This document shows positions 9,342 through 32,000 of a DNA stretch of 32,000 nucleotides, piece by piece. Below the pieces are notes generated by a model that ran no database searches, was not told where the DNA came from, and worked only from the letters and a program-made list of their open reading frames with translations. The translations under genes were made by a program, and so were the position numbers. Within the stretch, counting starts at the first letter, position 1; each line of letters begins with the position of its first letter. Source of the stretch: Candidatus Omnitrophota bacterium (GTDB taxonomy: Bacteria > Omnitrophota > Gorgyraeia > Zapsychrales > JANLHA01); the NCBI GenBank assembly GCA_963662715.1, contig OY759724.1:750001-782000 (forward strand), given 5' to 3'.

Positions 9342-9409
9342 AGGCACTCCTTTTCTCCGGCTTGGGGTGAACCTTGTTATTGATATTTCCCCGCCTTTTT
9401 CGCTTATTT

Positions 9410-12388: not shown

Positions 12389-12428
12389 ACAGGCTTATTC
12401 CTTATTGAGGGGATGAGCCTGTTTTTTT
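12389..12428 (+). terminator. Rho-independent terminator (riboswitch expression platform)
   Basis: An 11-bp stem pairs 12390..12400 (CAGGCUUAUUC) with 12411..12421 (GGAUGAGCCUG, including G-U pairs). The loop is 10 nt and a run of 7 T follows at 12422..12428. AGCCUG also occurs inside the aptamer (12361..12366) and could pair with CAGGCU 12390..12395 as an antiterminator. Confidence 0.7.
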
Positions 12429-12513
12429 GGCCAAACGAGGTCAAAGGCCAAAACAGGAATACAAAAGCTCTGTGACCACTTTTCAGCCGGGTCTGCCTAG
12501 AAAGGAGACACTT

Positions 12514-15163: not shown

Positions 15164-15436
15164 CTGACCTCCTGGTTTCTTCGTACGGGTTTAAATAAAA
15201 TTCAACATTCAACGCTTCATATTCTAATAGGATCAGGCGTATTTTGCAAAACCCTTTGTCATTTTCCAAGACAGTGGCAGCGTTTCGCAGGACACAACAT
15301 CAGATATTCACCGTTCCACCTCCTTTCGTATGGCCGGTTTTTTCTGCTTTTTTGTAAGATTCCTTTCATCATTCCTACATATAACAGCGTTATAAGTCTT
15401 TTAGTATCTTTTCAGTTATGAATTTGGAGAAATACT

Positions 15437-15868
15437 ATGAATCAATCGATAGGCATCCGGGCTCCCGTTCTTGCGGGTATATTATGCCTTGCTATACAGC
15501 AGCCGGTAGCCGATTCAGCCGTCAGCCGTCCTCCCGCCAAAGCCTACCACAGAAAAGGCCCCCGGGTTCTTTACGGCCAGGCCTCCTGGTACTCTGAAAA
15601 ATCTCCCGGGATCAGGAAAAAAACAGCTAACAATGAAATTTTTAACGATAAAAAACTGACAGCGGCTATGTGGGACGTGGCTTTTAACCAGAAGGTCAAG
15701 GTGACCAATCTGGACAATGGGAAAGCTGTGATTGTCAGGGTGAATGACCGGGGGCCGCACAGGCGTTATTATAAAAAAGGCCGGATCATCGACTTAACCA
15801 AGGTCGCCTTTGCCAGGCTGGAACATCCGAAAAAGGGACTGGTCAGTGTCGAGATGCTGAAAGACTGA
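15437..15868 (+). CDS. rlpA: RlpA-like septal ring lytic transglycosylase (DPBB domain) protein
   Basis: A signal-like N-terminus is followed by GQASWYSE...TANNEIF...LTAAMWDVAFNQKVKVTNLDNGKAVIVRVNDRGP...GRIIDLTKVAF, the RlpA double-psi beta-barrel signature. A GGAG SD lies 8 nt upstream of the ATG. Confidence 0.8.
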   Translation: MNQSIGIRAPVLAGILCLAIQQPVADSAVSRPPAKAYHRKGPRVLYGQASWYSEKSPGIRKKTANNEIFNDKKLTAAMWDVAFNQKVKVTNLDNGKAVIVRVNDRGPHRRYYKKGRIIDLTKVAFARLEHPKKGLVSVEMLKD

Positions 15869-15874
15869 TTCTTT

Positions 15875-17089: not shown

Positions 17090-17367
17090 AAGGCAAAGCC
17101 AACGGTCTTCAGTCCCCCGGGTGGCCCATTTTTCCAGAAGGGCGGACTAATAATTTTCTGCAATAATGTGCGGTACTAATTATGCCATAAATTAAACCCC
17201 GCGACAATTCATAATCAGGCAAGATCTTCTTCCTTATAATGATTCATAAAAAAGCCCCGCGCAGGCTGAGTCCCCCCCTCAATCACGACGGGACAGCAGG
17301 GAATGATGGAAGAGGAAAAAGACACACTCCGCAGATATTCTTTGTCATCTAATTAAAAAAAACGCTG

Positions 17368-17396
17368 TTAGGCAAAAACACATTTTATGATATAAT
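17368..17396 (+). promoter_or_regulatory. Candidate extended -10 promoter (TGaTATAAT) for the TRL lipoprotein gene
   Basis: TATAAT lies at 17391..17396 with TG at 17388..17389. A weak -35 (TTAGGC, 17368..17373) sits at 17-nt spacing. The element is about 60 nt upstream of the GTG start. Confidence 0.4.
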
Positions 17397-17457
17397 GTTG
17401 TCCTAACTAACGGAATAAAGGAATGTAACATCATCAACTAAAAAGGGAGGTAAAAAC

Positions 17458-17775
17458 GTGAAAAGAAAAATCTCATTACTCAGTCTTGTCCTTATCGCCA
17501 GCATCATGGTTTCCGGGTGCGCCACACTTTATCCCGTGGGCTCTTTTTACTCAGAAGTAGCCTTCCCAGCCGCTGTCGGTAATGGAGACGCAGACTACTC
17601 AAAAGTAGGTAAAGCGACAGCCAATTCCTACTTAGCGTTAATCGCTACCGGAGACTGCAGTATCGCAACGGCAGCGAAAAACGGCGGTATTACGGAAATC
17701 AAATATGTTGATTATGACGTAAAGAATATCCTCGGTATCATTGGTGAGTATACAACAGTCGTTTACGGAGACTAA
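17458..17775 (+). CDS. TRL-like family lipoprotein
   Basis: The GTG start is preceded by AGGGAGG. The protein begins MKRKISLLSLVLIASIMVSGC (lipobox). The body contains GKATANSYLALIATGDCSIATAAKNGGITEIKYVDYDVKNILGI...TTVVYGD, which matches the TRL (PF13146) pattern as I remember it. Confidence 0.85.
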   Translation: MKRKISLLSLVLIASIMVSGCATLYPVGSFYSEVAFPAAVGNGDADYSKVGKATANSYLALIATGDCSIATAAKNGGITEIKYVDYDVKNILGIIGEYTTVVYGD

Positions 17776-17790
17776 TATTATTTGACAGAT

Positions 17791-17829
17791 AAAAAAAGCA
17801 CGTTTCTTAATAGAAACGTGCTTTTTTTA
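17791..17829. terminator. Bidirectional rho-independent terminator
   Basis: A perfect 10-bp stem pairs AGCACGTTTC (17797..17806) with GAAACGTGCT (17813..17822), with a 6-nt loop. An A-run lies upstream and a T-run (17823..17829) downstream. It sits between convergent genes. Confidence 0.8.
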
Positions 17830-17840
17830 TTTATTCTCCT

Positions 17841-18914
17841 TCAGCCGTCAATGGATATTAAATCATACTCCAGATTCCCTACCCCCAACTGAGCGGCATA
17901 ATTCAACTGCTTCATTCCGTCACGTTGAGGATGCGCCTCCCTGAAAATATCTCTGCCACACACGCGCACCACAGCATCATAACAGGCTTTATCGATACTC
18001 ACCGGGTCCGGGGATGCAAACAGCCCGACATCCGGAGAAATCCGCGGATCATCTTTGGCCAGGCAGTCGCATTCTTTCGTAATCTTAACGGCAAAATTGA
18101 TAAACACGGACGGCCCGCTGCGGCCGGCTAAGACGGCGTTCGCATATTCAACCATCTTTTCCTGAATAGTCGTGCCGCCCGACTCCCAAACGACATCTAT
18201 CGCTCCGTACGGACAGGCGGCGATACAGCTGGCGCAGCCGATACAGAGCTCTCCGTCAATCAAAGATTTCTGATCACTGATCTTTATGGCATCCGCAGGA
18301 CAGACCTCCACGCATTCCCCGCAGCCGACACACGCTCCCTCTTCAACATAAGGAGACACATCGCAATGCTGGGCCAGTTTCCCTTGCCGCGATGCGCAGC
18401 CCATCCCGATATTTTTCAAAGCGCCGCCGAAACCTGTCATCAAGTGGCCTTTAAAATGAGAAATATCAACGAGAACATCCGCGTCCAAAAACAGCGGCAC
18501 CACCTTGGCGACTTGAATGAACTTCTGGTTGATCGCCACGGCTCTTTCATTCTCGGGGATATTCTCCGGGATACGGATTTCGGCTCCGGTCTTTTCAAAG
18601 GTAAAACCATGTTCTGCCGCAAGGCTCAGATGATCTTGTGAATTCGTCCTTCTTCCCCGGTATAACGTGTTGGTATCCGCCATGACCGGAACGGCGTCTT
18701 TTTTTTTGATTTCCTCCGCGATAATTTTAACCCATTCCGGTTTAACATGGCCTTTGTTCCCCTGCTCCCCGAAATGCATTTTAAGGACAGCCTGATTCCG
18801 GGGCGCTATTTGAGAGAATATCCGGCTTGTCCGAATAAGCTTCCGTAATTTCTCCTGCACCGCAGAGACGCTGTCTGAATTCTGCACTTTAATAAAGTAT
18901 ACTGGACTTTTCAT
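17841..18914 (-). CDS. DUF362 domain protein with embedded 4Fe-4S dicluster ferredoxin domain
   Basis: Two ferredoxin motifs are present: CVGCGECVEVCP and CIGCASCIAACP. The flanking sequence (VYFIKV...LKMHFGE.GN...MADTNTLY..RR.N) is typical of DUF362. I place the start at ATG 18914, preceded by GAGGGAG. Confidence 0.85.
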   Translation of the reverse strand: MKSPVYFIKVQNSDSVSAVQEKLRKLIRTSRIFSQIAPRNQAVLKMHFGEQGNKGHVKPEWVKIIAEEIKKKDAVPVMADTNTLYRGRRTNSQDHLSLAAEHGFTFEKTGAEIRIPENIPENERAVAINQKFIQVAKVVPLFLDADVLVDISHFKGHLMTGFGGALKNIGMGCASRQGKLAQHCDVSPYVEEGACVGCGECVEVCPADAIKISDQKSLIDGELCIGCASCIAACPYGAIDVVWESGGTTIQEKMVEYANAVLAGRSGPSVFINFAVKITKECDCLAKDDPRISPDVGLFASPDPVSIDKACYDAVVRVCGRDIFREAHPQRDGMKQLNYAAQLGVGNLEYDLISIDG

Positions 18915-18979
18915 GATGACTCCCTCTATATCGTTTCTCAATTATCCGAAATACCCAAGGGCTGCGTCCGCCTTTCTTG

Positions 18980-20311
18980 TCACAGGGACACGCGTCTCTT
19001 GATTCTCTTTTTAGACGGGTTAAAATATCCCGTCATGATGCGGGGATACGTTTTCTTAACAAATCGTATCAGCTTCGGTATGTCCCACAACGCCTCAGGG
19101 GCGGGATGAAACCGAAGCAAACGGAAATAAGCCCGGGGATCGTAATTCAGATTCCGCCATTGAATCATATCAACAGGATATGCCGCCAGAAACTTCTGAA
19201 GAGCCGCAACTTCCTGACGGGAATCCGTAAAACCTGGGATGATCAAATAATTCAAAGAAATAAAAGCCCCCCGCTTCCGGGCAACCCTGACGGATTTCTT
19301 CACGTCCTTGAATGAATAATCTTTCGGCTGATAATAGCGTTCATAATACTTCGTTTGAACGCTGTTGAGGCTCACCCGGATGCTGTCCAGGCCGGCGTCC
19401 AAAAGCTTCGCAATCATACGGGGCCGGCTGGCATTGGTGTTTAAATTAATAATCCCTTTTCTGGTTTTGCTCCGGATGAGTTTAACGGCTTTTTCGATCA
19501 CCGGTCCCGCCAGCAGCGGTTCTCCTTCACAGCCCTGCCCGAAACTGACCACCGGGTCCTTCACGTGGAGGATATGAAACAGGGCCACCTCGGCGATTTC
19601 CTCCGGGCTGGGCACAAAACGGATACGCGGCTGCGTGACAGGGCACGTGCCGCCGGGCTGCAGAGAAAGACACCCGGCACACTGCGCGTTGCAGGACGGC
19701 GATGTCGGCAGCGGGCCTTCATATCTTTTGAGAAAGAAATTCTTGGCCGCCGGGCACTGATTGACAAGGGCACAGTTTTCCAAATGCCGCACCAGCCTGT
19801 TTTTGGGGAACATTTTTTCAAATATTTTCACGTTTCTGCGAACCCGTTTCATATCCATAAAACGGACATCCTGACGGAGTTCCCGGTCAACACGTATCCC
19901 GCTGACATAGAAATCCCCCTCATAGAAGGCCACCGCAGCGTAGGCAAAAAGCGGCAGCAACCCCGTGTGCGGAATTTCAAGATACGCGGCATTCTCCGTC
20001 ACTGTATATCCCGGCGCCATAAAAGCCGCCACAGCATAACAGGGCTCGGGGCCTTTTGTGTTAAATGGATTTTGTTCCAAAGAGACAAATTCCCGCGATT
20101 CAGGATCAAAACCTACGGGGAACCGGTCAGGCAACATAAAAAGCTGACTGCCGTAAGGCAGTTTCGTCATCCGGGATAAACGGAGCCGGCTGTAATGCCC
20201 GCCCCGCATTCCGGCGGAAGCCAGGAAAGGCACATTGTAAATACGGCCCTCTTTATCTGCGACACACAATTCCGGGTAACGCGCCCGGGAGGATACGACA
20301 CTCATCGTCAT
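18980..20311 (-). CDS. Radical SAM protein with ~200-aa N-terminal extension
   Basis: The CX3CX2C motif SCNAQCAGC lies at about nt 19668..19697, and a downstream GQGCEGEPLL glycine-rich SAM motif is present. The SD AAGAGGAAA overlaps the stop of the upstream gene, suggesting translational coupling. Confidence 0.85.
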   Translation of the reverse strand: MTMSVVSSRARYPELCVADKEGRIYNVPFLASAGMRGGHYSRLRLSRMTKLPYGSQLFMLPDRFPVGFDPESREFVSLEQNPFNTKGPEPCYAVAAFMAPGYTVTENAAYLEIPHTGLLPLFAYAAVAFYEGDFYVSGIRVDRELRQDVRFMDMKRVRRNVKIFEKMFPKNRLVRHLENCALVNQCPAAKNFFLKRYEGPLPTSPSCNAQCAGCLSLQPGGTCPVTQPRIRFVPSPEEIAEVALFHILHVKDPVVSFGQGCEGEPLLAGPVIEKAVKLIRSKTRKGIINLNTNASRPRMIAKLLDAGLDSIRVSLNSVQTKYYERYYQPKDYSFKDVKKSVRVARKRGAFISLNYLIIPGFTDSRQEVAALQKFLAAYPVDMIQWRNLNYDPRAYFRLLRFHPAPEALWDIPKLIRFVKKTYPRIMTGYFNPSKKRIKRRVSL

Positions 20312-21717: not shown

Positions 21718-22716
21718 CTACGGCATATCCACACCGTCTAAAATTCTGTCCACCAGATTCTCGGCCGTTATGTTCAGCCCGCGGGCCTGGTAACTTTCGA
21801 TTAACCGATGGCTCAGAACATCCCGGGCCACAGCTCTGATGTCCTGCGGCCGCACATAAGCCCGGCCCTGAACCAAGGCGTAGGCCCGGCTGGCCACGGA
21901 AAGATGTATGCCGGCCCTCGGTGAAACACCGTATTTAATAAGCCCGACTAAATCATTCATCCCGAACTTATCCGGCTGGCGGGTTGCTTCAACAATATCC
22001 AAGATATAATCCTGCACCTTTTTTTCGATATGTATGCGGTCTACAAGGGTTCTGAGCCGCAGGATATGTTCAGGGTCCAGGACGGGATTGACGTCGAATT
22101 TGACATCGGTAAAAGCCATGCGCTGCAGGATCAACGCTTCTTCCTCCCGTGTCGGATAAGTCATCGACACCTTCAACATAAACCGGTCCAATTGAGATTC
22201 GGGCAAGGGATAAGTCCCGTCCTGCTCTATCATGTTCTGGGTGGCGAGGACTAAAAACGGCTCTGTTAATGCATAAGAGGCATCCCCGATCGTGACCTGC
22301 CGCTCCTGCATGGCTTCCAGCAGCGCGCTCTGGACTTTGGCCGGGGCACGGTTAATTTCATCCGCTAAAACAATGTTGGCGAACACGGGCCCTTTTTTAA
22401 CATAAAAAGACGCCGTACGCTGGTCGTACACCGGGGCCCCGGTTAAATCCGCCGGGAGCATGTCAGGGGTAAACTGAATACGGCTGAACTGCAGCTGCAC
22501 GGCCATGGCGAACGTTTTTACGGCCAGGGTTTTCGCCAGGCCGGGCACGCCTTCGATGAGGATATGCCCTCCGGCGAGCATCCCCAGAAGAATACGCTCA
22601 ATCAGGTCCTTCTGCCCGACAATAACATTTTCTATCTGCTGAAAGAATTCTCCGAATTTCCGAGACTCGTGCTGGATTTCTTTTTCTAACTCTTTCATCG
22701 TAGATTCTTTCATCAT
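21718..22716 (-). CDS. MoxR-family AAA+ ATPase
   Basis: The sequence reads VGQKDLIERILLGMLAGGHILIEGVPGLAKT (MoxR Walker A, GxPGxAKT), then LADEINRAPAKVQSALLEAMQE (Walker B/sensor region), then ATQNMIEQDGTYPLPESQLDRF. The size (332 aa) fits. Confidence 0.9.
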   Translation of the reverse strand: MMKESTMKELEKEIQHESRKFGEFFQQIENVIVGQKDLIERILLGMLAGGHILIEGVPGLAKTLAVKTFAMAVQLQFSRIQFTPDMLPADLTGAPVYDQRTASFYVKKGPVFANIVLADEINRAPAKVQSALLEAMQERQVTIGDASYALTEPFLVLATQNMIEQDGTYPLPESQLDRFMLKVSMTYPTREEEALILQRMAFTDVKFDVNPVLDPEHILRLRTLVDRIHIEKKVQDYILDIVEATRQPDKFGMNDLVGLIKYGVSPRAGIHLSVASRAYALVQGRAYVRPQDIRAVARDVLSHRLIESYQARGLNITAENLVDRILDGVDMP

Positions 22717-22740
22717 ATATCCCCTCTCCTGTTTTCTTCC

Positions 22741-25700
22741 TTACCAGTAAAAAATCCGGTTTTCATCTCCGGCCAGCGTTTCAACCAGATTTTTTTCACT
22801 CATCTTAGCACCGACCATAAAAATATTCATCTTTTTTTCACGAAGAGGACTCATCCGGATCTCCTGCTCCGTTCTCTGCATAAAGTCCGTCAACGCGACC
22901 TGCTGTAAGAAAACATCATTTTCTTCAGACGTATAAAAATCCAATCCGGAGATATCCAGCGTCATATGCCCGGCGATGCTTTGTTCATATCTTTCTTTGA
23001 TCTTCGTCAAAATTTTCTCGGAAAAAGACAAACAGTCTCTATCGGCAGAAAGACGTACGGGATATTCATGCAACGTTCCCGTGGGGTCAATCAAAATCAG
23101 TCTCTCTAACACCGTTTCGGAACGGAACAGATGGAACATTTTGACCGAACGGGCAAAGTCCCTGGCCCAAAGCCTTCGGCCCTCTTCATAATGCAAACCC
23201 CTCATATCCAGCCACAGGGCGACGCGGGCCCCGTAAGGATTGCTGAAGCGTCTGACCATGGGAACGGATGTGGCATAGCGCGCCGTGGCCTTCCAATCAA
23301 TGTGCCGGATATCGTCTCCCGACATATACTGCTCAAGCCGGTCAAACTCCACGCTCGTTTCATTGTTTTCCGGGATTTTGTCTCTCAGAAAATTAAAATT
23401 CATATGGGTCACCCGGGATTCCTGGAGGAGAAAGTCAAAAACCAGGGGTTTGACCCTGTCCAGGACATTGTCTCCTCGCGCCTTGGGGGCATTCTTCTGC
23501 GGCGGGGTATAAGTGTAAAAGATCTTTTTAAAACGGCTGTATAAAGACGGACAGGACGCTGTTTCCCGGATTTGAGTCAGCATAGACGCGATACTGTCAT
23601 TATATTCTTCCCGCAGATGAAAATATTTCTGCACCGGCCATATCCATAAAGCACGGCCCAGGTAAGGCCCCAAGAACGGCAGAAAAAACAACAGGTCATG
23701 CGCCTTGTTAACGACAGCTGATTTCTGCGGATTCAAGGGCGCCAGGAAAAGACAAACATCAAAAATAAACCGTTCTTTATCGCTGGCGGTTGATTTAAAC
23801 GCGCAAATATCCTTTTTAAGCTGAGGGTCTATCTGCCCTTTGGCAAGATAAACGCGTTTCAAAAGTTTCCTTTCCCGCTGTTCGGCTCCGAAGCTGTAGC
23901 CTTTGGCCCAGGGATTGTTGTTATAAATGCGGTCGATAATACTGGCCGGATCCCGGCCGTAAAACCTGCGTTTTCTATACGGAGCTCCCAGGGTATGAAT
24001 AAAGAATGCCGATAAGTTGAAAAAGATGAAGACAAAAACAGCTGCCGCGATGGATTCCGCGCTGGTAGCCTGGGGCAGGTGTTCGGAACGATAAAAAATC
24101 AAGCTGAGGGCATTGCGCAAAAATGACCACAAATGAAAGCCCCCTCCAACGCTGTCGGCTGTCCCGTCAAAAATAAAACGGGGTCCGCTTCTGGGGCCGA
24201 CCAAACCCACGCCGCCCAGGATATAACCCCGCTGTGCGATTCTGTGATCCGTTCCGTAAATGACTTCCTGAAAATTTGACATGACGGACATGTACCGGCC
24301 CGGCTCGGCCGTGGACAAATATTTCTCCGGTTCGCGATAAAGAAGATACGCCACTTCATGAAGAACATCATTGTCCATTTTTTGGATGTCGGCGGCGATA
24401 CGCCGGATGCGGTCTTTTTCAAAACGGTTGGAGATCAAAGGAGCTTTCCGGCCGGGGTTCTGCTCTGACAAATAAATGGACAGCCCGTTAAGAATCCCCT
24501 TGGAAGCTTGAGAATAATGGTCGAATTCATCCCCTTTTAAGGTTTCGGCCACCAGTCTCTGAGAGATGTACTCCTTCCGGTCACCGGCCCATAAAACCGG
24601 GGCCAGCATAGAATTCAATTCAATATTTTCGGGTAACGGCTTATTTTCAAAACGAAAACGCAGGTGATCAACGACGTGTCCCGTTTCATGAAAGGCCGTC
24701 CATTCCACGTGAGAAGTCATCCGGCGGAAAACAATGGCAAATTCACCTTCAAAGTATCCTGCCCGGTCAAGAAAAGGATACTCCTCTCCTTCCACGACAT
24801 AAGAAACAGCCGGCCACAACTCTGATCTTTTAACCTTCTCCCTATCCATTCCCAGACGCTGAAACGCCTCTTCAGCAAAAACGTACCGTTTTAAGATCGG
24901 TTCCGAGAACAAAAAAAGATAAGGAACGTCCTCTTCCAAAATAATAAAGGTAAAAGGAAAAACATTATAAGAGATAAATGCTCTTCTCAGATCCAGAAGT
25001 TCATTTCTTAAAGCCCCTTCCTGTATGGTCTGCTGCCCGAACAGCGTGATGATATTGCCGATAGAACGCGCGATACGTCCGTCAAGATAATAAGCCGCTT
25101 CCACGACATCGTTCTTCAGCTGGGCATCCAGGTTCCAGTCTGCCATCAGCAGAAAAAAACCTTTGAGGATATGCCGGCAGAAAAAGAGGAACCCTTCCCG
25201 GGAACGGTAAAGCCTTTTAGCGTAAAAAACGCGAAGATTATGTCTTATCTGCTCCGGAGAATAAGTTTCCCCGATAGCTGCGACCCGGGTTTTGAAGTAT
25301 CCTTCTTTTTCTTTATCGGCGAGGGATTCGGCATCAAATTTGAAAATCTTTTTTAGCTCAAAAACAAAAACCCGCCATAACCGGTTATCCGCATCCGTCC
25401 GCTCCAGGGCGGCCAAACAGAGTCCGGACAACACAAAAGCCAGAACCAAAGCCGCCGTTAAATTTCGAAATCTTTTCCGCTGGCCGGCCCGGACAAACCG
25501 GACAAAAGGATCGACGGTACGCCGGTACATATCCTTAAGCTGGTCGGAAAAAGGATAATACCCGTGCAGCCAGTCTTCCAGTCGGATAAGCCAGGCGCTT
25601 TTCCCGGAGCCTTCCTCCCTGAAATCTTCGGGAACGGCGGCCGTTAAAGTTTTCTGAGCTTCTATGAAAAGCCCGGTCATGGCTTCCTGGGCCATAGTGA

Positions 25701-26316
25701 TCTGAAAACGGTTACGCAGGTTATAATGACTTTCCGTGAGGATAAAACGCAAATACCGGTAAATATGACCGCATAACTTATGATAAACAACCCGCCAGGG
25801 GCTGGTGTTGGCCGGGATGCGGTCCAATTGCCGTTTAAGAAGATATATTTCGCGTTCCCGTGCCTCGGGCCACAGGCCTTTTTTAGCTTTATCTTCCAGG
25901 TCCTTCCAAAGATCGCTGGCCTCTTTTTCAACACGGTGACGTTCTTTATCGTGCCGTTTTCCCGGCTGTTTCCCGGGCAGATTTTCTTCGGCGGGCCAGC
26001 GCAGATCGGCATAAAACGCGATCCATCGCCTGGTTTTAAAATAAATAGCATCAATCTGTGACAAATATTTCAGAAAAAACGGCTGTAATTGCGGCTTGTC
26101 CGCCGGGGTATGTTTCTGTAACGACAGAATATATGCCCTCAGGCGGTGATGGGATAATTCCACCTGCCGGTCGATAGATAAAATACTTAATGTATCTGCT
26201 TTGGGATGGCGGATGCTTTTTCGATAGGCATCTTCTAATCTGCGGATATGCTTAAGAGGCTCTTCGCTCAAATTCTCGGAGAGAGCGAAAAATTTTTTAA
26301 TAAAAGAAAAAGTCAT
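22741..26316 (-). CDS. Large (1191 aa) membrane protein: N-terminal region with HExxH motif fused to a C-terminal DUF58 domain
   Basis: The DUF58 signature YMSGDDIRHIDWKATAR lies at about nt 23280..23320. HETGH lies at nt 24676..24690 in the context EWTAFHETGHVVDH. Hydrophobic helices LTAALVLAFVLSGLCLAAL and AAAVFVFIFFNLSAFFIHTL are present. The stop is 24 nt before the MoxR start. Confidence 0.85.
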   Translation of the reverse strand: MTFSFIKKFFALSENLSEEPLKHIRRLEDAYRKSIRHPKADTLSILSIDRQVELSHHRLRAYILSLQKHTPADKPQLQPFFLKYLSQIDAIYFKTRRWIAFYADLRWPAEENLPGKQPGKRHDKERHRVEKEASDLWKDLEDKAKKGLWPEAREREIYLLKRQLDRIPANTSPWRVVYHKLCGHIYRYLRFILTESHYNLRNRFQITMAQEAMTGLFIEAQKTLTAAVPEDFREEGSGKSAWLIRLEDWLHGYYPFSDQLKDMYRRTVDPFVRFVRAGQRKRFRNLTAALVLAFVLSGLCLAALERTDADNRLWRVFVFELKKIFKFDAESLADKEKEGYFKTRVAAIGETYSPEQIRHNLRVFYAKRLYRSREGFLFFCRHILKGFFLLMADWNLDAQLKNDVVEAAYYLDGRIARSIGNIITLFGQQTIQEGALRNELLDLRRAFISYNVFPFTFIILEEDVPYLFLFSEPILKRYVFAEEAFQRLGMDREKVKRSELWPAVSYVVEGEEYPFLDRAGYFEGEFAIVFRRMTSHVEWTAFHETGHVVDHLRFRFENKPLPENIELNSMLAPVLWAGDRKEYISQRLVAETLKGDEFDHYSQASKGILNGLSIYLSEQNPGRKAPLISNRFEKDRIRRIAADIQKMDNDVLHEVAYLLYREPEKYLSTAEPGRYMSVMSNFQEVIYGTDHRIAQRGYILGGVGLVGPRSGPRFIFDGTADSVGGGFHLWSFLRNALSLIFYRSEHLPQATSAESIAAAVFVFIFFNLSAFFIHTLGAPYRKRRFYGRDPASIIDRIYNNNPWAKGYSFGAEQRERKLLKRVYLAKGQIDPQLKKDICAFKSTASDKERFIFDVCLFLAPLNPQKSAVVNKAHDLLFFLPFLGPYLGRALWIWPVQKYFHLREEYNDSIASMLTQIRETASCPSLYSRFKKIFYTYTPPQKNAPKARGDNVLDRVKPLVFDFLLQESRVTHMNFNFLRDKIPENNETSVEFDRLEQYMSGDDIRHIDWKATARYATSVPMVRRFSNPYGARVALWLDMRGLHYEEGRRLWARDFARSVKMFHLFRSETVLERLILIDPTGTLHEYPVRLSADRDCLSFSEKILTKIKERYEQSIAGHMTLDISGLDFYTSEENDVFLQQVALTDFMQRTEQEIRMSPLREKKMNIFMVGAKMSEKNLVETLAGDENRIFYW

Positions 26317-26442
26317 GGGGTCGGGGTGTCTTTAACAGTAAAAACATATGACCTGTTCGGCTACTTGTCATTATAATCGTTATAAGGACTTAGGAAAGCA
26401 TTATTTATTGTTCCCTTGAAACGTCATGGCCGGATTCACATA

Positions 26443-26494
26443 CAAAACGGGGCCGTAAGAAGCAGCGCTCAGCCACCTTCTTCCTCCGGCCCCG
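26443..26494 (-). terminator. Candidate terminator hairpin after the 44-aa ORF
   Basis: The minus strand reads GGGGCCG-GAG-GAAGAAG...CUUCUU-A-CGGCCCC followed by GUUUUGU. The outer stem pairs 26488..26494 with 26449..26455. Confidence 0.45.
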
Positions 26495-26510
26495 GATATT
26501 TTTTCTGTTC

Positions 26511-26645
26511 CTATCCCCTTACCGGGGTGGAAGAAACGACAAATGAACTTCCATAGGAATCCGTGACTTCCAGTATTTCAAATAAATTCCCGAACCAGAT
26601 AGCCACAAGAAACAAAGGAATAAATATGTAAGCTGTTCTTTTCAT
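26511..26645 (-). CDS. Candidate 44-aa hydrophobic peptide (below the ORF-track size cut-off)
   Basis: My own translation is MKRTAYIFIPLFLVAIWFGNLFEILEVTDSYGSSFVVSSTPVRG, ending at stop TAG (26513..26511). It is preceded by the strong SD GAGAGGAGAAAAGA-ATG. It has one N-terminal TM-like helix, and a hairpin terminator follows. Confidence 0.4.
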   Translation of the reverse strand: MKRTAYIFIPLFLVAIWFGNLFEILEVTDSYGSSFVVSSTPVRG

Positions 26646-26858
26646 TCTTTTCTCCTCTCTCGAATCCCTTCTTCAGGTATTCACCTTATTGCCCCTTTAA
26701 TGTCTTTACTTGTGATTTAGTCGGGAATACAGGGACTTGCTTACATGGAAATCATCACGCCGTTACGGGAATAATGCAAATTATTGACATATAGCATATT
26801 AGAATCATAGAAATCGGGCACAAGGGAAGGATTGTTGGAAGCTTTCTGCGTCCTGATG

Positions 26859-27083
26859 TTAAATAATACTCCCGAAGGGGTTCCGGGGGCCGAGATTAAC
26901 GGCTCGCAGAAACGAAGGAAGTTTTCTGGCGGGGATAATAATTTCCGTGACCTTTTCTCTTGTCACGTCTTCAAAAATCATCTTTAAACCAACCTGGCCT
27001 TCATCATCACTGAAATGTTTGGCATAAAGGCTGTAATTCGCTCCGCAATCGCTCCATTCAATGAGTTCATTAATTCTGGCCAT
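26859..27083 (-). CDS. Hypothetical 74-aa soluble protein
   Basis: The ORF has a GGAG SD 5 nt upstream of its ATG. A perfect consensus promoter lies about 45 nt upstream of the ATG. I recognise no family. Confidence 0.6.
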   Translation of the reverse strand: MARINELIEWSDCGANYSLYAKHFSDDEGQVGLKMIFEDVTREKVTEIIIPARKLPSFLRAVNLGPRNPFGSII

Positions 27084-27126
27084 ATGATCGCTCCAATGTT
27101 TTATGGTTGAGTTGGCTTTGGAAGGA

Positions 27127-27155
27127 ATTATATTATTCCGCCATTTTCATGTCAA
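27127..27155 (-). promoter_or_regulatory. Perfect consensus sigma70 promoter (TTGACA-17-TATAAT)
   Basis: The minus strand reads TTGACA (27155..27150), then the 17-nt spacer tgaaaatggcggaataa, then TATAAT (27132..27127). It lies directly upstream of the 74-aa ORF and downstream of the giant-gene terminator. Confidence 0.65.
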
Positions 27156-27216
27156 GCGCAGATGATATAGATATCCACCGGCTCACGCCAGCGACTTTTA
27201 CACACCCATAAAAACT

Positions 27217-27253
27217 GAAAAAAGAGAGCCTCAAAAGGGGCCCTCTTTTTTTC
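27217..27253. terminator. Bidirectional rho-independent terminator after the giant gene
   Basis: The stem pairs AGAGAGCCUC (27223..27232) with GGGGCCCUCU (27237..27246), with one mismatch and one G-U pair, and an AAAA loop. An A-run (27218..27223) and a T-run (27246..27252) flank it. It lies about 60 nt downstream of the stop at 27311. Confidence 0.65.
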
Positions 27254-27310
27254 AATATTTTCTAAGATGAAACATTTATATTCTGCAGGAAGGGATAAAA
27301 ATCCTGCAAA

Positions 27311-30300
27311 TCAGAAAACATCCTGCTTGGCGCCGGCGTCTAACGATGACAGCTGATCTTCATCGCCGGGCTCAACGTCCGAATCCGAACCGAATAACAG
27401 CGGGAGGTTGGGAACAGGGGTGATATTAATAATAACAGGTAAAAATCCTCCGATATCCATCTGCTGAACAGGCTGCTGCGGCAGAGGCAAAGGAACGCCT
27501 TCCCCGTCACGCTTGATCTGCAGATCCAACAGTTGAGGATTAAGATTGATACCTCCATACTGCCCGTTATCAACAACCTCTTCCGTTATCGCCGATTGAA
27601 ACAGGGGTGACGATGCAACCGCTTGCTGAATGATCTCCTGGCTAGGCAGATAAAGATCTCTGCCGTCGGACAATTCCGGCCTTCTCAGCTTCTCGACATT
27701 ACCGTCAGCAGCGAACAAATTTTTCATAACTTCATTCCATTTGGCTATATCCTGCTCAGACATGTCACGGACCGGCTCCAGCAGACGATCAACTTCAGCC
27801 AGCAATCCCTTTTCCCGGCTTAATTCCAGGAAAACCTCTTGGAGAGCTTCTTCCGGATTAGCCGAATGCACCGCATCTTCAAAAATGGTTTCCGTGCCCC
27901 AGGCCTGGTAAAGAGCCGTCTCAATATCCCCCTCGACTAAATTATCATAAATAGTTTTTAAAGGTTCCAGACCTTCTCTCCCGAGTAAATCTTCAAGATG
28001 ATGGATCAGGTCCCCCCGTCTGTTATAAGCCGTGCCGTTGTTGGAGTGATGCGCAATCACTCTGCGCAGCTGCTCGCCGCTCAGCTTAAGCCGTTCATAG
28101 GTCGCAAGGAAATCCGCAACAGAGGGCTCACTGCTCGCGATATTCTGAACGCCCTTCTCATTAATATACTGCCAGAAAAAAGGATCTCTGTCTTCCACGG
28201 GTTGATCCAACGCCGTCAATACGGCTTCCTTATGCTCCAGCAAGTCGTTTATCAACCGGGCCCGCTGGGTCTTCATCTTAAGAGCAAGCTGTAACAACTG
28301 CAATTGGGCCCTGGACTGACTCTTTTCCACATCAACTTTAGGGGAGGTCCGCAGGGCATTATACAGAAGCTGTTTACTCTCTGTATTGAACCTGTTGCCC
28401 AATCTTGCCAGTCCGACCAAAAGATTGCCGGCCGACGGGCGCCGGCCTCCGCCTTCCTGCTGGCTTTTCCGGCCGCTATACTTAATCAGATAACCGTTTC
28501 TTATTTCGTATTCCCCGTATTTCAGCCCGCGCAACAATTCATTATGAGTGAGGCCGGTTTTAATGACATCGACTCTCTGCCCGGTGCGCACGTCAATCAC
28601 ATCAAACAGTTCCGGCATCGTCCCGCCCCAGACCCCGAACATAAAAGCGCCGTTGGTAAGGGCCTTCATCATACTTGTCGCAGACGCTTCCAGAAACTCG
28701 TCCGACAACATAATCGTCGCCGCCACCCCGCGGAAAATCAGCGGAGCGTCATAAGGGTTGTAATTTTCAAGAAAGGCAATTTGATCCCCGAGGCCCAGAT
28801 CCTTGACCATGCCTTTCAACTCTTCGAACAGCTGATTGGCTTCGTGCCCAAAGATTCTTCCGCCCAGAGCCAGCCGCATCTTGGAATCCCGGAACTGTTT
28901 AAGCGCTCTGGGGTCCTTTAAAATCCCGAGGATCTCTTTATAAATGTCCGGCCCTTTATAAGGCACCTGCCGGCGAAGGTTCGCCGCAACAGGGTTCTGA
29001 ATTAAAACATCCTTCAATTTCCCGAGTTTCTCATCCAAGGCTCTCCATTGTCCCTCATTCTTAACATCCGCTAAAGCCTGATTAAGCAGGCCCGCATATT
29101 CTTCCCGTAAAGCCCTGACGTCCGTCTGGCTGTCCAGCCCCGATTCCTTGAGGAGCTGGGCAAGCCACTGGGATCCACCCAAATCCTGCGTCTGGTTCTC
29201 CTGTAACCAGAGATAAAGGTCCATCATATACAGCACCTTAATCTGCTCAAACTGGCTCTGAAAACGGGCCAGCTCAGCGGGGTTTTCTTCCAGTTTGTCA
29301 TAAAACTGCACGTCGTCTGTTTGAGCGGTTAAACCCAACGATACTTTGTAATCATCAATGATGCTTCTCAGTTCATGGCCCTGCCACTGGTCAAAAAGGA
29401 CCCCGTTGCTGTTACGCTGCTCTCCCTGATACCATTGCCAAATTTTATGCGCAAGATCAGGAAGCAGATTGTTTCTCAAGACCGGAGTATGTTCATACAC
29501 ACTGACCCCCATAAAAAGATCGACATTTTCCGCGGCATACCTCACGATATCGATAACATCCCGGCCGCCTTCCTTAAAGACAATGGCCTGCCGGTCTTTC
29601 TCCTCAAAACCCATTAACTTAAAGGCATATTCCGGAGGGTTGTACATCGCCGGCTTATAAACACTGTGGTTGATCTCGGCCCTCATGGCTGTTTCCGTGA
29701 CAGGCGGCTGCTCAATCCCAAGCTCGGCGAGATCCATTTGTTCGTTTTTCGGCAAGCTGACGAAAATTTCATTTTCCACCCAGGTGACTTTACTTTTTAT
29801 TCTCCCGTCCGCCTGTAACATCCTGGCGAACCGCTGGGTCGCCTTGTTGTACACAACCATCTGAATGACCCGCCAGTCCTTGGCCGGGGAAATCTCATCA
29901 GAATATATCTCGTCAAAAATATACTGTTTGTTCCCGTCATCATCAAGATAATAGGCGTCTTCATAAAACTCCGGAAGCGTCGTGAAGGAAGACTCCAGTT
30001 CATAAAGATCAACGGTGATCGGGCGCCCCTGCGCCTGCGCCAGCAATTCCTTCATTTTGGCGAATTTTTCATCATCCAATTCAGAAAAAGCTTCCCGGGC
30101 CTCATCTTCTAATCCTTTAAGCACATACTGGCTCTGATCGAGATACCCCATCTGGATCAGACGCGAGGAAAGGGCTTCGGCCAGTCCGCCATCTACGCCA
30201 AGCTGTTCCAGTTCCTGCTTGGAAACAGCTCGGCCGACCAGCTGTTTCGCCTTGTCAAAAACGGCTTTGTTTCTGAAATCCGTATCATTCAACCGTAACG

Positions 30301-32000
30301 TAACACTCTTCTGCGCCGGCGGCAACACGTCCCTGATTAACTGCCCCAGAGCGACACTCCCGTCTGCGATATAGTTTTTGAAAATCTCTTCCGGGACTTC
30401 TCTAACTGTTCCTTTTATACGGTTGTTCAACGTATTAAAAGAAACAACATCAACGCCCGCCCTCTTCCAGGCGACAACGAGATCATGCATCAACGCGCCC
30501 AAACCTCCGCTCATATTGACCTGAGAAATGAAACGGGTCAGTTCTTCCCCATATTTGGCTGCCAGCGTGTCGACCAGAAATCCGCGGTCCAGGGAGGCCT
30601 CCATCTGCAAACTGATAACCGTGCGGTCCATAAGATCGGGAACATTTTGGGCCGCCCAGGAATTTTCATCAACACCCTGCAGGTCAGCCTCCGTCGTCTC
30701 CCCCATCCGGACCGGCGCCGCTTTCTTGCCGTTTAACACGTCAACGGCCTCGGCCATAAAATCCAATATCTGCAAAGCGCTCAAAAGTTTCCGCTGATCT
30801 ATTCTTGATAAACTTGTCCGCACCGATGTCTCCGGCAGTTGCAGCGGAGATGAGACCGCTCCCTGTCCGTCTATCGACAAGCGGACAACATCATCCATCG
30901 CATCAGCCGCGGCCTTATTTCCGACTTCGGTGAGATTCACCTGGATATTAATAGGAGAACTCCCTGAAGCTGTTCCGGCCCCGCGCTCCTGATAACGGGC
31001 CGGCAGGTTTCCGCGAAGGTCTTCCCTTATATGTTTCACCGCCGTAAGCTGCATCCCTCCGGAAAAATACTTCCGGGGAATCGGCTGGGTCTCCTCCGGG
31101 TGGTTCTCTTCGCGGATATAATTGAACACGCCTTTTTCAAAAGCCATGAGATATTGTTGATAAATTTTCTCGCTGATCCGCTTGTCCTCGACATCAATGC
31201 CTTTTGTTCTGGTCTTATTGACATAAACCTTCCCCAGCAGGGATTGCCGCAGATTGTCTTTATACCAGGAGGCTAAAATGACCGAGTTATATATCTGCCG
31301 AAGGTTGGAAAACGTCTTGCTTTCATTCACTTCCTTTTCAAGTTCCGGGATGAGGATCTCCCGGACAATATCAGAAACATCCCCGCTGATTTCTTTGGCT
31401 TCATGGTCAGAGACATGATCAAGCCCGAATTTTTTAGTGCCCCGGGTTTTCTGTAAAGCAAGATAATCCTGTTCAAGCATAACCTTTAAATGGCTGTCGA
31501 CCACATAAGCTCCGCCGGCTTTCTCGTAAACGACAGCTTTATCCGGAACAATCCAGATTTTATTAAAAGTATTGACCGGGATATTGATCGTCCCGAAACG
31601 CCGGTAAGCTTTCTCATAAGCCCTTTGCCAGAATTCCTGCCCCAGTTTTTCTTCCGGATAAATTAACGAAGCAGAAATTTGTTTCAGCAAATAGTCTAAA
31701 GCTAAAAGATCCCGTCCCATTTCCGTCTTCCCGAAGGCCTTCGGGATAATACGGTCTTTTTCATAAGGGGAAAGGTTGACCCACATGTCTTCTTCCGGAA
31801 TTGTGAGAGCAGCCAGAAAATACTTAATTAAGTCCGTGGCTTGACGCCGGAATTCCTTCCCGTCAGGGTCCTCGTCTCCGGGATCAACAATAAAATCCAG
31901 ACGTAAGGGCTGGTCAGGATAAATCCGGACGCCCTGGATAATCATCGGGTTAAAAGTGCCGCTGAGACGGAGCATCTTCCCGGGAGGCGGCAGGTCCGGC
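27311..32000 (-). CDS. Giant secreted modular protein paralog (at least 1562 aa, N-terminus beyond window end) with head domain, embedded GT35 alpha-glucan phosphorylase-like domain and C-terminal tail motif
   Basis: The track ORF starts at an internal Met (31975). The frame stays open to 32000 and reads ...PDLPPPGKMLRLSGTF, which aligns with SLPQPGRILKISETF of the 2770-aa protein, so the true start is outside the window. Head-domain blocks LIKYFLAALT, WVNLSPYE, NIPVNTFNKIWIVPDKAVVYE and PRKYFSGG are shared. The phosphorylase motifs SGGLGALMHD and FLENYN...EASATSMMKALTNGA are present. The tail reads GGINLNPQLLDLQIKRDGEGVPLPLPQQPV...FLPVIINITPV. Confidence 0.9.
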   Translation of the reverse strand, partial: PDLPPPGKMLRLSGTFNPMIIQGVRIYPDQPLRLDFIVDPGDEDPDGKEFRRQATDLIKYFLAALTIPEEDMWVNLSPYEKDRIIPKAFGKTEMGRDLLALDYLLKQISASLIYPEEKLGQEFWQRAYEKAYRRFGTINIPVNTFNKIWIVPDKAVVYEKAGGAYVVDSHLKVMLEQDYLALQKTRGTKKFGLDHVSDHEAKEISGDVSDIVREILIPELEKEVNESKTFSNLRQIYNSVILASWYKDNLRQSLLGKVYVNKTRTKGIDVEDKRISEKIYQQYLMAFEKGVFNYIREENHPEETQPIPRKYFSGGMQLTAVKHIREDLRGNLPARYQERGAGTASGSSPINIQVNLTEVGNKAAADAMDDVVRLSIDGQGAVSSPLQLPETSVRTSLSRIDQRKLLSALQILDFMAEAVDVLNGKKAAPVRMGETTEADLQGVDENSWAAQNVPDLMDRTVISLQMEASLDRGFLVDTLAAKYGEELTRFISQVNMSGGLGALMHDLVVAWKRAGVDVVSFNTLNNRIKGTVREVPEEIFKNYIADGSVALGQLIRDVLPPAQKSVTLRLNDTDFRNKAVFDKAKQLVGRAVSKQELEQLGVDGGLAEALSSRLIQMGYLDQSQYVLKGLEDEAREAFSELDDEKFAKMKELLAQAQGRPITVDLYELESSFTTLPEFYEDAYYLDDDGNKQYIFDEIYSDEISPAKDWRVIQMVVYNKATQRFARMLQADGRIKSKVTWVENEIFVSLPKNEQMDLAELGIEQPPVTETAMRAEINHSVYKPAMYNPPEYAFKLMGFEEKDRQAIVFKEGGRDVIDIVRYAAENVDLFMGVSVYEHTPVLRNNLLPDLAHKIWQWYQGEQRNSNGVLFDQWQGHELRSIIDDYKVSLGLTAQTDDVQFYDKLEENPAELARFQSQFEQIKVLYMMDLYLWLQENQTQDLGGSQWLAQLLKESGLDSQTDVRALREEYAGLLNQALADVKNEGQWRALDEKLGKLKDVLIQNPVAANLRRQVPYKGPDIYKEILGILKDPRALKQFRDSKMRLALGGRIFGHEANQLFEELKGMVKDLGLGDQIAFLENYNPYDAPLIFRGVAATIMLSDEFLEASATSMMKALTNGAFMFGVWGGTMPELFDVIDVRTGQRVDVIKTGLTHNELLRGLKYGEYEIRNGYLIKYSGRKSQQEGGGRRPSAGNLLVGLARLGNRFNTESKQLLYNALRTSPKVDVEKSQSRAQLQLLQLALKMKTQRARLINDLLEHKEAVLTALDQPVEDRDPFFWQYINEKGVQNIASSEPSVADFLATYERLKLSGEQLRRVIAHHSNNGTAYNRRGDLIHHLEDLLGREGLEPLKTIYDNLVEGDIETALYQAWGTETIFEDAVHSANPEEALQEVFLELSREKGLLAEVDRLLEPVRDMSEQDIAKWNEVMKNLFAADGNVEKLRRPELSDGRDLYLPSQEIIQQAVASSPLFQSAITEEVVDNGQYGGINLNPQLLDLQIKRDGEGVPLPLPQQPVQQMDIGGFLPVIINITPVPNLPLLFGSDSDVEPGDEDQLSSLDAGAKQDVF

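Follow-up and report, generated by a model that had tools for sequence, protein, structure and literature searches.

Why should an alpha-glucan phosphorylase be embedded in a large protein that looks secreted? Glucan phosphorylases are normally cytoplasmic, stand-alone enzymes that depend on pyridoxal phosphate (PLP). A first-pass annotation of the window (the whole stretch of 32,000 nucleotides analysed here, from an Omnitrophota bacterium) placed a GT35-like domain at 28560-30600, inside what it called a giant secreted protein. The motif strings it quoted are all present in the minus-strand open reading frame 27311..>32000, which has 1562 residues within the window; the first 54 residues of the full protein (P0001, 1616 aa) lie past base 32000. 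The protein is large, but it is not giant by Omnitrophota standards. The domain lies where it was flagged, although the conserved core is larger, at about 27932-30670.

The first step is to establish whether this core belongs to GT35. Weak single-sequence matches of P0001 point to GT35 every time: PF00343 scores 15.7 bits (E 0.0045; cut-off 27), TIGR02094, the top curated-HMM match, scores 26.5 bits (E 2.6e-6; cut-off 191.7) with only ~105 residues aligned, and phmmer against the PDB gives an E-value of 0.15. The HMMER comparison proposed in the first pass therefore returns GT35 families as best matches, but both fall below their curated cut-offs. Standard Pfam thresholds thus miss the domain. 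Five relatives (P0002, P0121, P0122, P0123 and P0128) score 30-36 bits with PF00343 and so clear its gathering threshold, though over only ~60-90 residues, and one intermediate sequence reaches 90 bits. When the core family is compared with E. coli MalP/GlgP by hhalign, the probability is 93% (E 2.8e-7), and it is 98.3% (E 1.2e-14, 601 columns) with 24 intermediate sequences added; residue placement was taken from the local mode with these intermediates. A transitive chain of profile comparisons links the core to the intermediates at E 9e-102 and the intermediates to MalP at E 4.6e-20, and the family profile searched against the PDB matches GT35 entries only. Furthermore, an AF2 model of the core reaches a pLDDT of 85.6 and a pTM of 0.86 (a model built on a 5-sequence alignment, with a pLDDT of 51, was not used), and its top 50 Foldseek matches in the PDB include nothing but phosphorylases of glycogen, starch or maltodextrin (E 1.6e-16 to 5e-15; TM 0.41-0.55; ~920 columns aligned at the best matches). 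Identity to the solved structures in these alignments is ~12-13%. The 98% profile-profile probability and the GT35-only fold matches make the homology clear despite the sub-threshold single-sequence scores. Profiles and model together confirm the flagged region as a real, very divergent GT35-type domain with a complete predicted fold; it is a divergent variant of a known enzyme type.

The second step is to ask how the core is housed. Here all features lie on the minus strand. A putative signal peptide, MKRQTLSRQSKRVFCKVSNVFLILVISSSLIIPSPVAWFSPVSAAYA, forms the hydrophobic N-terminal segment of P0001 (aa 1-~48; upstream of base 32000 and outside the window). It is followed by a conserved head domain (aa 55-405; 30947-32000), recognised from a homologue search, a head HMM and the paralogous ORF 440-8752, and by a linker (aa 406-497; 30671-30946) that is poorly conserved and unaligned among homologues. 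Next comes the GT-B core of alpha-glucan phosphorylase type, delimited by AF2, Foldseek and hhalign (aa 498-1410; 27932-30670). Its N-terminal half carries a 71-aa insertion (aa 644-714; 30020-30232) that has low pLDDT (44-67) and is missing in 5/5 close homologues, and so is specific to P0001; its last ~150 residues (aa ~1260-1410) form a family-specific C-terminal helical/beta extension. A spacer of low conservation (aa 1411-1535; 27557-27931; pLDDT <50 at its start) then leads to the conserved tail, GGINLNPQLLDLQIKRDGEGVPLPLPQQPV...FLPVIINITPVPNLPLLFG (aa 1536-1591; 27389-27556), identified by paralogue identity and a tail HMM, and to an acidic end (27314-27388) before the stop codon. The N-terminus and the head and tail HMMs bear out the earlier description of a domain with a signal-peptide head on one side and a conserved tail on the other.

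This arrangement had been called unusual. The architecture is real, but far from being confined to this enzyme it is standard in a very large Omnitrophota paralogue family. The same window holds a second head-cargo-tail protein of 2770 aa with a HEAT-repeat cargo (440-8752, minus strand), whose head and tail are 57% and 77% identical to those of P0001; since it shares both ends, head-cargo-tail is a reusable cassette. The head matches >4,356 database proteins at E<=0.001, nearly all of the named ones from Omnitrophota, with identities of 50-63% to the matches listed among >4,300 proteins, and it has no relative in Pfam, NCBIfam or the PDB by sequence or profile. Among the best 120 of the >4,300 head matches, the head HMM matches N-terminally in 120/120 and the tail HMM near the C-terminus in 119/120. 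The tail consensus of ~56 aa, GGI(D/N)xNP..LDLQIKRDG.GVPLPL..QP....F.PVIINI.PV, is matched by P0001. Cargoes in these best 120 head proteins include PGM, UGPase, PGI, hexokinase, FBA, TIM and GAPDH, as well as PGK, enolase, PPDK, GT5 and sucrose synthase.

The N-termini suggest where such proteins go. P0001, P0002, P0003, P0123 and P0128 each open with a basic n-region that leads into a hydrophobic segment, P0122 is of the same type and only marginally under the hydropathy threshold used, and a segment of this kind, stereotyped in sequence, is found in 109/120 of the best head proteins. An Ala-x-Ala-like or YAQ motif follows the hydrophobic core. Tat export was rejected as a general route, a twin-arginine-like motif occurring in only 3/112 complete N-termini. 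Since the other cargo enzymes bear this head and tail too, I infer joint export or anchoring of the phosphorylase with them, and its putative signal peptide suggests that it may act outside the cell. As a counterpoint to export, a Sec signal implies unfolded passage, so that the enzyme would acquire its PLP only after leaving the cytoplasm, in surroundings where neither free PLP nor phosphate at millimolar levels is to be expected.

Alternatively, an active phosphorylase may stay on the cytoplasmic side, where the N-terminal segment, and perhaps the tail, would tether a glycogen/glycolysis metabolon to the inner membrane. Cargo enzymes of the family depend on ATP, NAD+, UTP or PLP, and their classical place is the cytoplasm; furthermore, in the accessible text of their studies, the authors who described giant Omnitrophota proteins caution that glycolytic domains may have been wrongly predicted as extracellular and that roughly half of the long proteins seem to face the cytoplasm. 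However, an n-region, a hydrophobic core and an Ala-x-Ala-like/YAQ motif make up either a Sec signal or an N-in segment with the bulk of the protein outside, and beyond its N-terminus P0001 contains no other segment that is strongly hydrophobic. A cytoplasmic location is thus unlikely, though it retains some chance of being right.

Exported or not, does the core keep what a phosphorylase needs? Conservation was counted over 38 members of the core family at ~35% pairwise identity, with the 24 intermediates included for the phosphate-site block. Rabbit GP numbering was checked on 842-aa rabbit GP chains, in which LNDTH holds His341 and YTNHT holds His377, and the equivalences given here come from profile alignment rather than structural superposition. 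The GGLG loop (G552-G555; 30497-30508) corresponds to rabbit G134-G135-L136-G137, each residue present in 38/38. NEIF (aa 797-800; 29762-29773) is the counterpart of the GT35 'NDTH' block: the equivalent of D339 is an invariant Glu (E798, 38/38), and the equivalent of His341 (position 800) is Phe in 29 members, Tyr in 5, Leu in 2 and Val in 1, with His absent among the residues listed and Phe in P0001 itself. NHS (N831-H832-S833; 29663-29671) matches N376-H377-T378, its Asn and His being kept in 38/38; His377 is a ligand of glucose O6 in GT35. The first pass had proposed VYEHTPV as the counterpart of FTTHTPV/YTNHT, which was a misplacement, as the actual block is EINHSVYKP and GVSVYEHTPV aligns with GT35 'NGVxxLHS'. 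Further along, NGVLFDQW (aa 919-926; 29384-29407) corresponds to TNGITPRRW (N484...W491), with N919, G920 and W926 in 38/38.

The remaining blocks concern the cofactor and phosphate. RRQVPYK (aa 1063-1069; 28955-28975) is the equivalent of the phosphate-site block K568-R569-x3-Y573-K574; R1063, R1064, Y1068 and K1069 have spacing identical to GT35 and occur in 38/38 of the core family and 24/24 intermediates, K568 being represented by Arg. The equivalent of Y648 is kept in 36/38. EASATSMMK (aa 1158-1166; 28664-28690) matches GT35 EASGTGNMK in HMMER alignments to PDB phosphorylases, and K1166 (codon 28664-28666) aligns with the PLP lysine (rabbit K680, MalP K646), making it the putative Schiff-base lysine. 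E1158 (equivalent to E672) and K1166 are found in 38/38, T1162 (T676) in 37/38 and the S674 equivalent in 31/38, whereas G675 has become Ala, and the PLP-phosphate loop reads A-T-S-M in place of the G-T-G-N of GT35. In the 280s gate loop (the N284 region) only Tyr-Pro-Asp is conserved, and N284 is not alignable. The PLP lysine is retained, as the first-pass annotation had stated, and the catalytic and PLP-site residues whose loss would have counted against its reading survive with it, just as the GT35 match it asked for is significant at the level of profile and fold: the equivalents of K568, R569, Y573, K574, H377, N484, W491, Y648, E672 and T676 are kept in 36-38 of the 38 members. Judged from these alignments, the PLP lysine and the phosphate site are retained in the P0001 core and the glucosyl subsite in part, the His341 equivalent being among the residues that differ.

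The substitutions raise a second alternative, namely that the GT35 fold is kept as an exported alpha-glucan- or carbohydrate-binding module, serving adhesion without phosphorolysis. Besides the Phe at the His341 position and the altered gate and PLP-phosphate loops, this would fit a domain that lies under curated HMM thresholds and a presumed location outside the cytoplasm, where the supply of PLP and phosphate is doubtful; a role in prey adhesion has also been proposed for Omnitrophota long proteins in the accessible text of two papers (10.1101/2023.11.21.568195; PMC10066038). However, residues that serve only the chemistry (the equivalents of the PLP Lys, the R/R/Y/K phosphate site, E672 and H377) are invariant in 38/38 at ~35% identity, which is the pattern expected under selection for catalysis, and in some relatives the core is joined to further catalytic domains of glycogen breakdown. 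The invariant residues similarly disfavour the repurposed glucan-binding module that the earlier annotation had offered, and a pseudoenzyme seems rather improbable.

Those relatives are rare. Two word-indexed homologue searches gave 3 proteins and 1 protein, and an exhaustive search was used instead, in which the family HMMER profile found 176 proteins among 1.84 billion representatives and did not recover canonical GT35. The relatives are mostly from Omnitrophota and mostly lie inside proteins of 2,000-8,000 aa; P0123, P0128 and P0122 stand alone. In P0124 the same core is fused to a GH77 4-alpha-glucanotransferase and a GDE_C amylo-1,6-glucosidase domain, and in P0121 to a GH13 alpha-amylase domain. 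Beyond the core, eleven more long proteins show nothing from Pfam at E<=1e-4 or 1e-5, and core-bearing long proteins of 2,000-2,850 aa have no Pfam match at E<=1e-5, so that Pfam-based surveys would overlook the domain. The gene neighbourhoods of P0001 (the window), P0002 and P0122 contain no glycogen operon. A UGPase-like middle domain in P0003 was unconfirmed and was dropped as evidence.

Phosphorylases are reversible enzymes, and a third alternative is that the domain works mainly in the synthetic direction from glucose-1-phosphate, or that it is a GT5-like NDP-sugar glucan synthase. Homologues give weak PF08323 (starch synthase) matches of 17-22 bits over the N-terminal GGLG region, an R-x4-K-G-x-D block is similar by eye to the GT5 'RLxxQKG' motif, and GT5, sucrose synthase and UGPase occur as cargoes of head-tail paralogues; GT5 domains are also frequent in Omnitrophota long proteins, according to the accessible part of the literature on them. 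Against this, hhalign of the core with the GT5 enzyme E. coli GlgA gives a probability of <1% (E 0.07-0.13, not significant) compared with 93-98% for GT35, and a GT5 identity was rejected on that comparison. The Foldseek top 50 contains GT35 enzymes alone, an invariant Lys eight residues past a conserved Glu is a GT35/PLP signature and not a GT5 one, and the fusion partners (GH77, GDE_C, GH13) are degradative. Synthesis is accordingly very unlikely to be the domain's role. Finally, chance resemblance of a handful of short motifs within a large protein of low information content, which the marginal single-sequence E-values might have suggested, has virtually no standing against nine colinear GT35 signature blocks, a profile-profile E-value of 1e-14 and a confident model that matches only GT35 at 1e-16.

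I return to GT35 catalysis in an exported protein, and estimate at roughly 65% the probability that what is encoded here is a highly divergent GT35 member, full-length and competent for catalysis, in an exported head-cargo-tail design specific to Omnitrophota. Going by sequence, the function of P0001 is most likely PLP-dependent alpha-glucan phosphorolysis by an exported or anchored enzyme. The phosphorylase would be the cargo between a Sec-type signal peptide with a ~350-aa head and a ~56-aa tail. K1166 would carry PLP as a Schiff base, R1063, R1064, K1069 and Y1068 would hold orthophosphate beside the PLP phosphate, and the GGLG loop, H832, N919 and E1158 would place the glucose at the end of an alpha-1,4-glucan, with glucose-1-phosphate as the released product. 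Such an enzyme could feed glycogen or maltodextrin, possibly prey-derived, into a co-localised sugar-phosphate pathway.

What would this mean for the organism? Omnitrophota are ultra-small, possibly predatory bacteria in which the externalisation of enzymes is debated. A bolder and doubtful proposition is that they tag a whole glycogen-to-pyruvate set (phosphorylase, PGM, UGPase, hexokinase, PGI, aldolase, TIM, GAPDH, PGK, enolase and PPDK) with one signal peptide, head and tail and export it outside their own cytoplasm, to the cell surface, into an enlarged periplasm, or to a site within or against prey cells. If so, the divergent GT35 clade would open the pathway by mobilising prey glycogen, and an externalised central-metabolism pathway would come with an undescribed protein-sorting or display system. 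The clade appears always to carry an export signal or to lie in multi-thousand-residue proteins, with its predicted catalytic constellation largely kept, which raises the questions of how PLP is loaded outside the cytoplasm, where phosphate comes from and which glucan is attacked. Some of what is 'Pfam-dark' in the long proteins of Omnitrophota can now be named, and as most glycogen and glycolysis enzymes share these ends, one construct family could test the debated externalisation.

Among known systems, the closest is GT35 itself (MalP, GlgP, rabbit muscle GP; PF00343). P0001 shares its large GT-B fold of two Rossmann domains with GT35-specific elaborations over ~900 columns, the colinear motifs GGLG, YP(N/D), N(D/E)xx, NH(T/S), GVxxxH, NG...W, (K/R)Rx3YK, GG(K/R), ENY and EASxTxxMK, and the PLP lysine, the phosphate-site residues and several of the glucose-site residues. 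It differs in its ~12-13% identity, the His341 to Phe change, the A-T-S-M loop, extra insertions and the ~150-aa C-terminal extension, and in having its core in a multidomain protein with a putative signal peptide, whereas canonical GT35 enzymes are cytoplasmic and stand alone. With the archaeal/thermophile-type 'Alpha-glucan family phosphorylase' of TIGR02094 it shares the EASGTSxMK-type PLP block, and a member of that family, PDB 20yr from Segatella copri, is matched by both the family profile and Foldseek, but at 26.5 bits P0001 is far under the cut-off of 191.7. GT5 GlgA (PF08323) shares a GT-B fold with the core, as well as the (K/T)GGLG loop near the N-terminus and the R-x4-K-G motif; it differs in being about half as large, in having no PLP lysine and in showing no significant profile similarity.

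Two further comparisons concern the architecture. The accessible text of two papers describes Omnitrophota 'Archaeovorins' and 'multi-enzyme metabolic clusters', in which sugar-metabolism and glycolytic domains lie in long proteins predicted to face outward (10.1101/2023.11.21.568195; 10.64898/2026.06.07.730766). In that text I found neither a description of the head-cargo-tail cassette nor a phosphorylase or GT35 domain among the domains given. These long multi-enzyme proteins come from the same phylum, bear signal peptides or TM segments and carry sugar-metabolism domains, as P0001 does; most relatives of the core likewise lie in ORFs of 2,000 to >4,800 aa. However, the Archaeovorins of West-Roberts et al. 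(2023), as described in the same text, run to tens of thousands of residues, have numerous TM segments and carry dockerin or C39/S8 peptidase domains, whereas P0001 has 1616 aa and a single, N-terminal hydrophobic segment, and dockerin and C39/S8 peptidase Pfam domains are absent from it. Finally, by analogy, the cassette resembles the dockerin/cohesin display of the cellulosome, where one targeting module is likewise placed on many catalytic cargoes per organism; the two have no sequence relationship, and the Omnitrophota cargoes are enzymes of central metabolism rather than polysaccharide hydrolases.

The minus-strand ORF that runs from 27311 to beyond 32000 (1562 codons inside the window) has an identical database copy, P0001, a protein of 1616 aa encoded on a 3.36-Mb contig, which supplies the 54 N-terminal residues beyond the window. 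The first-pass annotation had placed a GT35-like (alpha-glucan phosphorylase-type) domain at 28560-30600; the domain is there, but that span is too narrow, as the conserved core covers P0001 aa 498-1410 (27932-30670). All the strings it quoted are found in this ORF, where GGLG lies at 30497-30508 and EASATSMMK at 28664-28690 (both minus strand). The GT35-type domain in P0001 is complete. It carries a helical, low-confidence insertion of 71 aa at 30020-30232 (minus strand; RAVSKQELEQLGVDGG...LLAQAQGRP), unique to P0001's copy of the core, and a C-terminal extension specific to the core family.

Taken alone, the window protein matches PF00343 at E 0.0045 over 59 residues (15.7 bits, cut-off 27), TIGR02094 at E 2.6e-6 (26.5 bits, cut-off 191.7) and its best PDB entry at E 0.15. 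The HMMER comparison proposed earlier thus stays below both curated thresholds, but every one of these weak matches is to an alpha-glucan phosphorylase, and a PDB search with the core-family profile returned GT35 entries only. Profile-profile comparison of the core (38 sequences) with the E. coli phosphorylases MalP and GlgP gave a probability of 93% (E 2.8e-7, 615 columns). The 24 sequences that bridge the two families (intermediates) match the core at 100% (E 9e-102, 715 columns) and MalP/GlgP at 99.3% (E 4.6e-20, 551 columns); core and intermediates combined match MalP/GlgP at 98.3% (E 1.2e-14, 601 columns). With 5 sequences aligned, AlphaFold2 gave a poor model (pLDDT 51); a 24-sequence alignment raised this to pLDDT 85.6 and pTM 0.86, and the 50 highest-ranking Foldseek matches in the PDB are without exception glycogen, starch or maltodextrin phosphorylases (E 1.6e-16 to 5e-15, probability 1.00, ~920 columns aligned). 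Profiles, model and Foldseek together confirm the GT35 fold first claimed from sequence, and the core is almost certainly homologous to GT35.

Five close homologues share 39-45% identity with the window protein. Two of them, P0002 and P0003, come from Omnitrophota and have its conserved N-terminal domain (head) and C-terminal segment (tail); P0121, labelled Elusimicrobiota, fuses the core to a GH13 alpha-amylase-family domain, and P0122 and P0123 stand alone at 1032 aa; the 90% cluster of P0122 includes proteins of Candidatus Orphnella occulta, classified in Omnitrophota. Four of the five, P0003 being the exception, score above the Pfam gathering threshold, but the matched stretch is limited to the C-terminal 60-90 residues. 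Searched exhaustively with HMMER, 1.84 billion cluster representatives yielded 176 proteins at E<=0.001, of which some 40 have the whole domain; some distant matches are ordinary-looking PF00343 proteins (e.g. P0163 at 90 bits). Degradative fusion partners recur in P0124 (2357 aa), where the core precedes a GH77 4-alpha-glucanotransferase and a GDE_C amylo-alpha-1,6-glucosidase domain (E 1.7e-103), a complete single-chain glycogen-degrading set. A scan of species-representative genomes located 24 loci with the core; Omnitrophota MAGs account for most, and a few come from MAGs that carry a Planctomycetia or Elusimicrobia label. At most of the loci the core lies within an ORF >3,000 aa, and one ORF of >4790 aa (locus L006) holds two tandem copies. 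Eleven core-profile relatives of 980-2,850 aa (P0129, P0130, P0134, P0136-P0138, P0140, P0147, P0150, P0151 and P0205) have no Pfam match at E<=1e-4 or 1e-5, so the core belongs to what goes unannotated in such proteins. Being invisible to standard annotation, this divergent GT35 core explains some of the 'dark' sequence in Omnitrophota long proteins.

The head (~350 aa; 30947-32000, minus strand) matches >4,356 database proteins at E<=0.001, nearly all named ones being Omnitrophota, with 50-63% identity to the window protein among the matches listed. In the best 120 of these it is N-terminal without exception (120/120), and 119 carry the ~56-aa tail near the C-terminus, which bears out the earlier picture of a signal-peptide head and a tail enclosing the GT35 domain. 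Neither head nor tail has relatives in Pfam, NCBIfam or the PDB. A second member of this head-cargo-tail cassette lies within 20 kb: a 2770-aa HEAT-repeat ORF (440-8752, minus strand) with the same kind of signal-like N-terminus and 57% (head) and 77% (tail) identity to the target. By precomputed Pfam domains of head-matching proteins, cargoes include PGM, UDP-glucose pyrophosphorylase, glucose-6-phosphate isomerase, hexokinase, aldolase, TIM, GAPDH, PGK, His_Phos_1-type phosphoglycerate mutase, enolase, PPDK-type domains, starch synthase (GT5), sucrose synthase, isocitrate lyase and malate synthase, as well as receiver, GGDEF and HEAT domains.

The N-termini are stereotyped: a basic n-region, a hydrophobic core (roughly YRILSAFIAFTFIFS), PP, then a YAQ or AxA-like site. 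The rough consensus over P0001-P0120 is ...YRILSAFIAFTFIFS..PP...YAQ...LNLP, the window protein's own N-terminus being upstream of base 32000. A hydrophobic segment is present in 109 of the best 120 head proteins (of >4,356) and opens the stand-alone phosphorylase-like P0123 and P0128; P0122 begins similarly, its hydropathy just below the threshold used. Tat-like export was rejected, a twin-arginine-like motif occurring in 3/112 N-termini only. These features suggest export by a Sec-type route, or an N-in anchor that leaves the bulk outside, and a location outside the cytoplasm is somewhat favoured for the window protein. A membrane-tethered metabolon facing the cytoplasm would share the hydrophobic segment and the glycolytic company, and I consider it unlikely. 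Such sequence conservation across the head family is unusual for signal peptides; it may hint at a dedicated sorting route.

Residue equivalences were read from the alignment of core and intermediates with MalP/GlgP, in rabbit muscle phosphorylase numbering verified by peptide search (LNDTH, His341; YTNHT, His377), and conservation was counted by column over 38 core homologues. The positions compared I take to be the PLP-, phosphate- and glucose-binding residues of glycogen phosphorylase. The putative catalytic constellation is largely retained. Rabbit G134/G135/L136 correspond to P0001 G552/G553/L554, N484 and W491 to N919 and W926, K568/R569/Y573/K574 to R1063/R1064/Y1068/K1069 and K608 to R1102 (all 38/38), and Y648 to Y1134 (36/38). 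In N831/H832/S833 (rabbit N376/H377/T378) N and H are invariant (38/38), as are Y and D in Y753-S-D755 (rabbit Y280-P-N282), with the remaining gate loop unconserved. N797/E798/F800 replace rabbit N338/D339/H341, E in 38/38 and position 800 never His (F29 Y5 L2 V1). E1158-A-S-A-T-S-M-M-K1166 matches rabbit E672-A-S-G-T-G-N-M-K680 (E, K 38/38; T 37/38), so the putative PLP lysine was correctly recognised at the outset, and the other presumed PLP- and phosphate-site residues, R1063 to K1069, hold equally well. One early equivalence was wrong: VYEHTPV is not FTTHTPV, since the YTNHT/FTTHT block is EINHSVYKP and GVSVYEHTPV aligns with the 'NGVxxLHS' block.

With chemistry-specific residues invariant at ~35% pairwise identity, this pattern argues for an active enzyme over a decayed binding module, and I put catalytic activity at roughly 0.65-0.7. 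A glucan-binding pseudoenzyme, to be judged on the missing His341 as well as on these invariant residues, is improbable. GT5-like chemistry or a synthetic direction is very improbable: core with or without intermediates scores <1% against E. coli GlgA (E 0.07-0.13, 422-449 columns). In an active phosphorylase, K1166 would carry PLP, R1063/R1064/K1069 would hold orthophosphate, and glucose-1-phosphate would be released from alpha-1,4-glucan by an enzyme exported or anchored beside head-tail-tagged PGM and glycolytic enzymes.

Gene neighbourhoods (window, P0002, P0122) are uninformative on function. Directly downstream of the target gene, 21718-26316 (minus strand) encodes a 332-aa MoxR-type AAA+ ATPase and, after it, an unusually long protein of 1191 aa; Pfam matches the latter only in a short DUF58 segment towards the C-terminus. 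The ~1 kb that borders the target ORF on its downstream side (26317-27310) holds no ORF >74 aa, Rfam match or tRNA. A minus-strand cluster at 14375-20311 encodes a SAM hydroxide adenosyltransferase (DUF62-type), two unannotated ORFs, a DUF362 protein with a 4Fe-4S dicluster and a radical-SAM protein. Ordinary neighbours at 8952-9889 (minus) and 15437-15868 (plus) comprise SSB, a PspC-domain protein and a DPBB_1 (lytic transglycosylase-like/RlpA-type) protein. On the plus strand, unlike most genes, is a c-di-GMP-I-GGC riboswitch aptamer (RF03167; 12299-12376; 65 bits, gathering score 59, E 2e-13), upstream of a small ORF (12427-12747, plus) without a Pfam match.

Outward-facing Omnitrophota long proteins with sugar-metabolism domains have been reported in general terms, the portions consulted listing GT5, GT1, PGM and glycolytic domains (10.1101/2023.11.21.568195; 10.64898/2026.06.07.730766), so the core is not categorically new. 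Those portions list no phosphorylase domain and describe no head-cargo-tail cassette, which may be the more consequential feature. Compared with known GT35 enzymes, the core falls below curated HMM thresholds, differs at His341, the gate loop and the PLP-phosphate loop, and has extra insertions (the 71-aa one in P0001 only) and a C-terminal extension; by predicted fold and active site it belongs with GT35 and would probably work like GT35.
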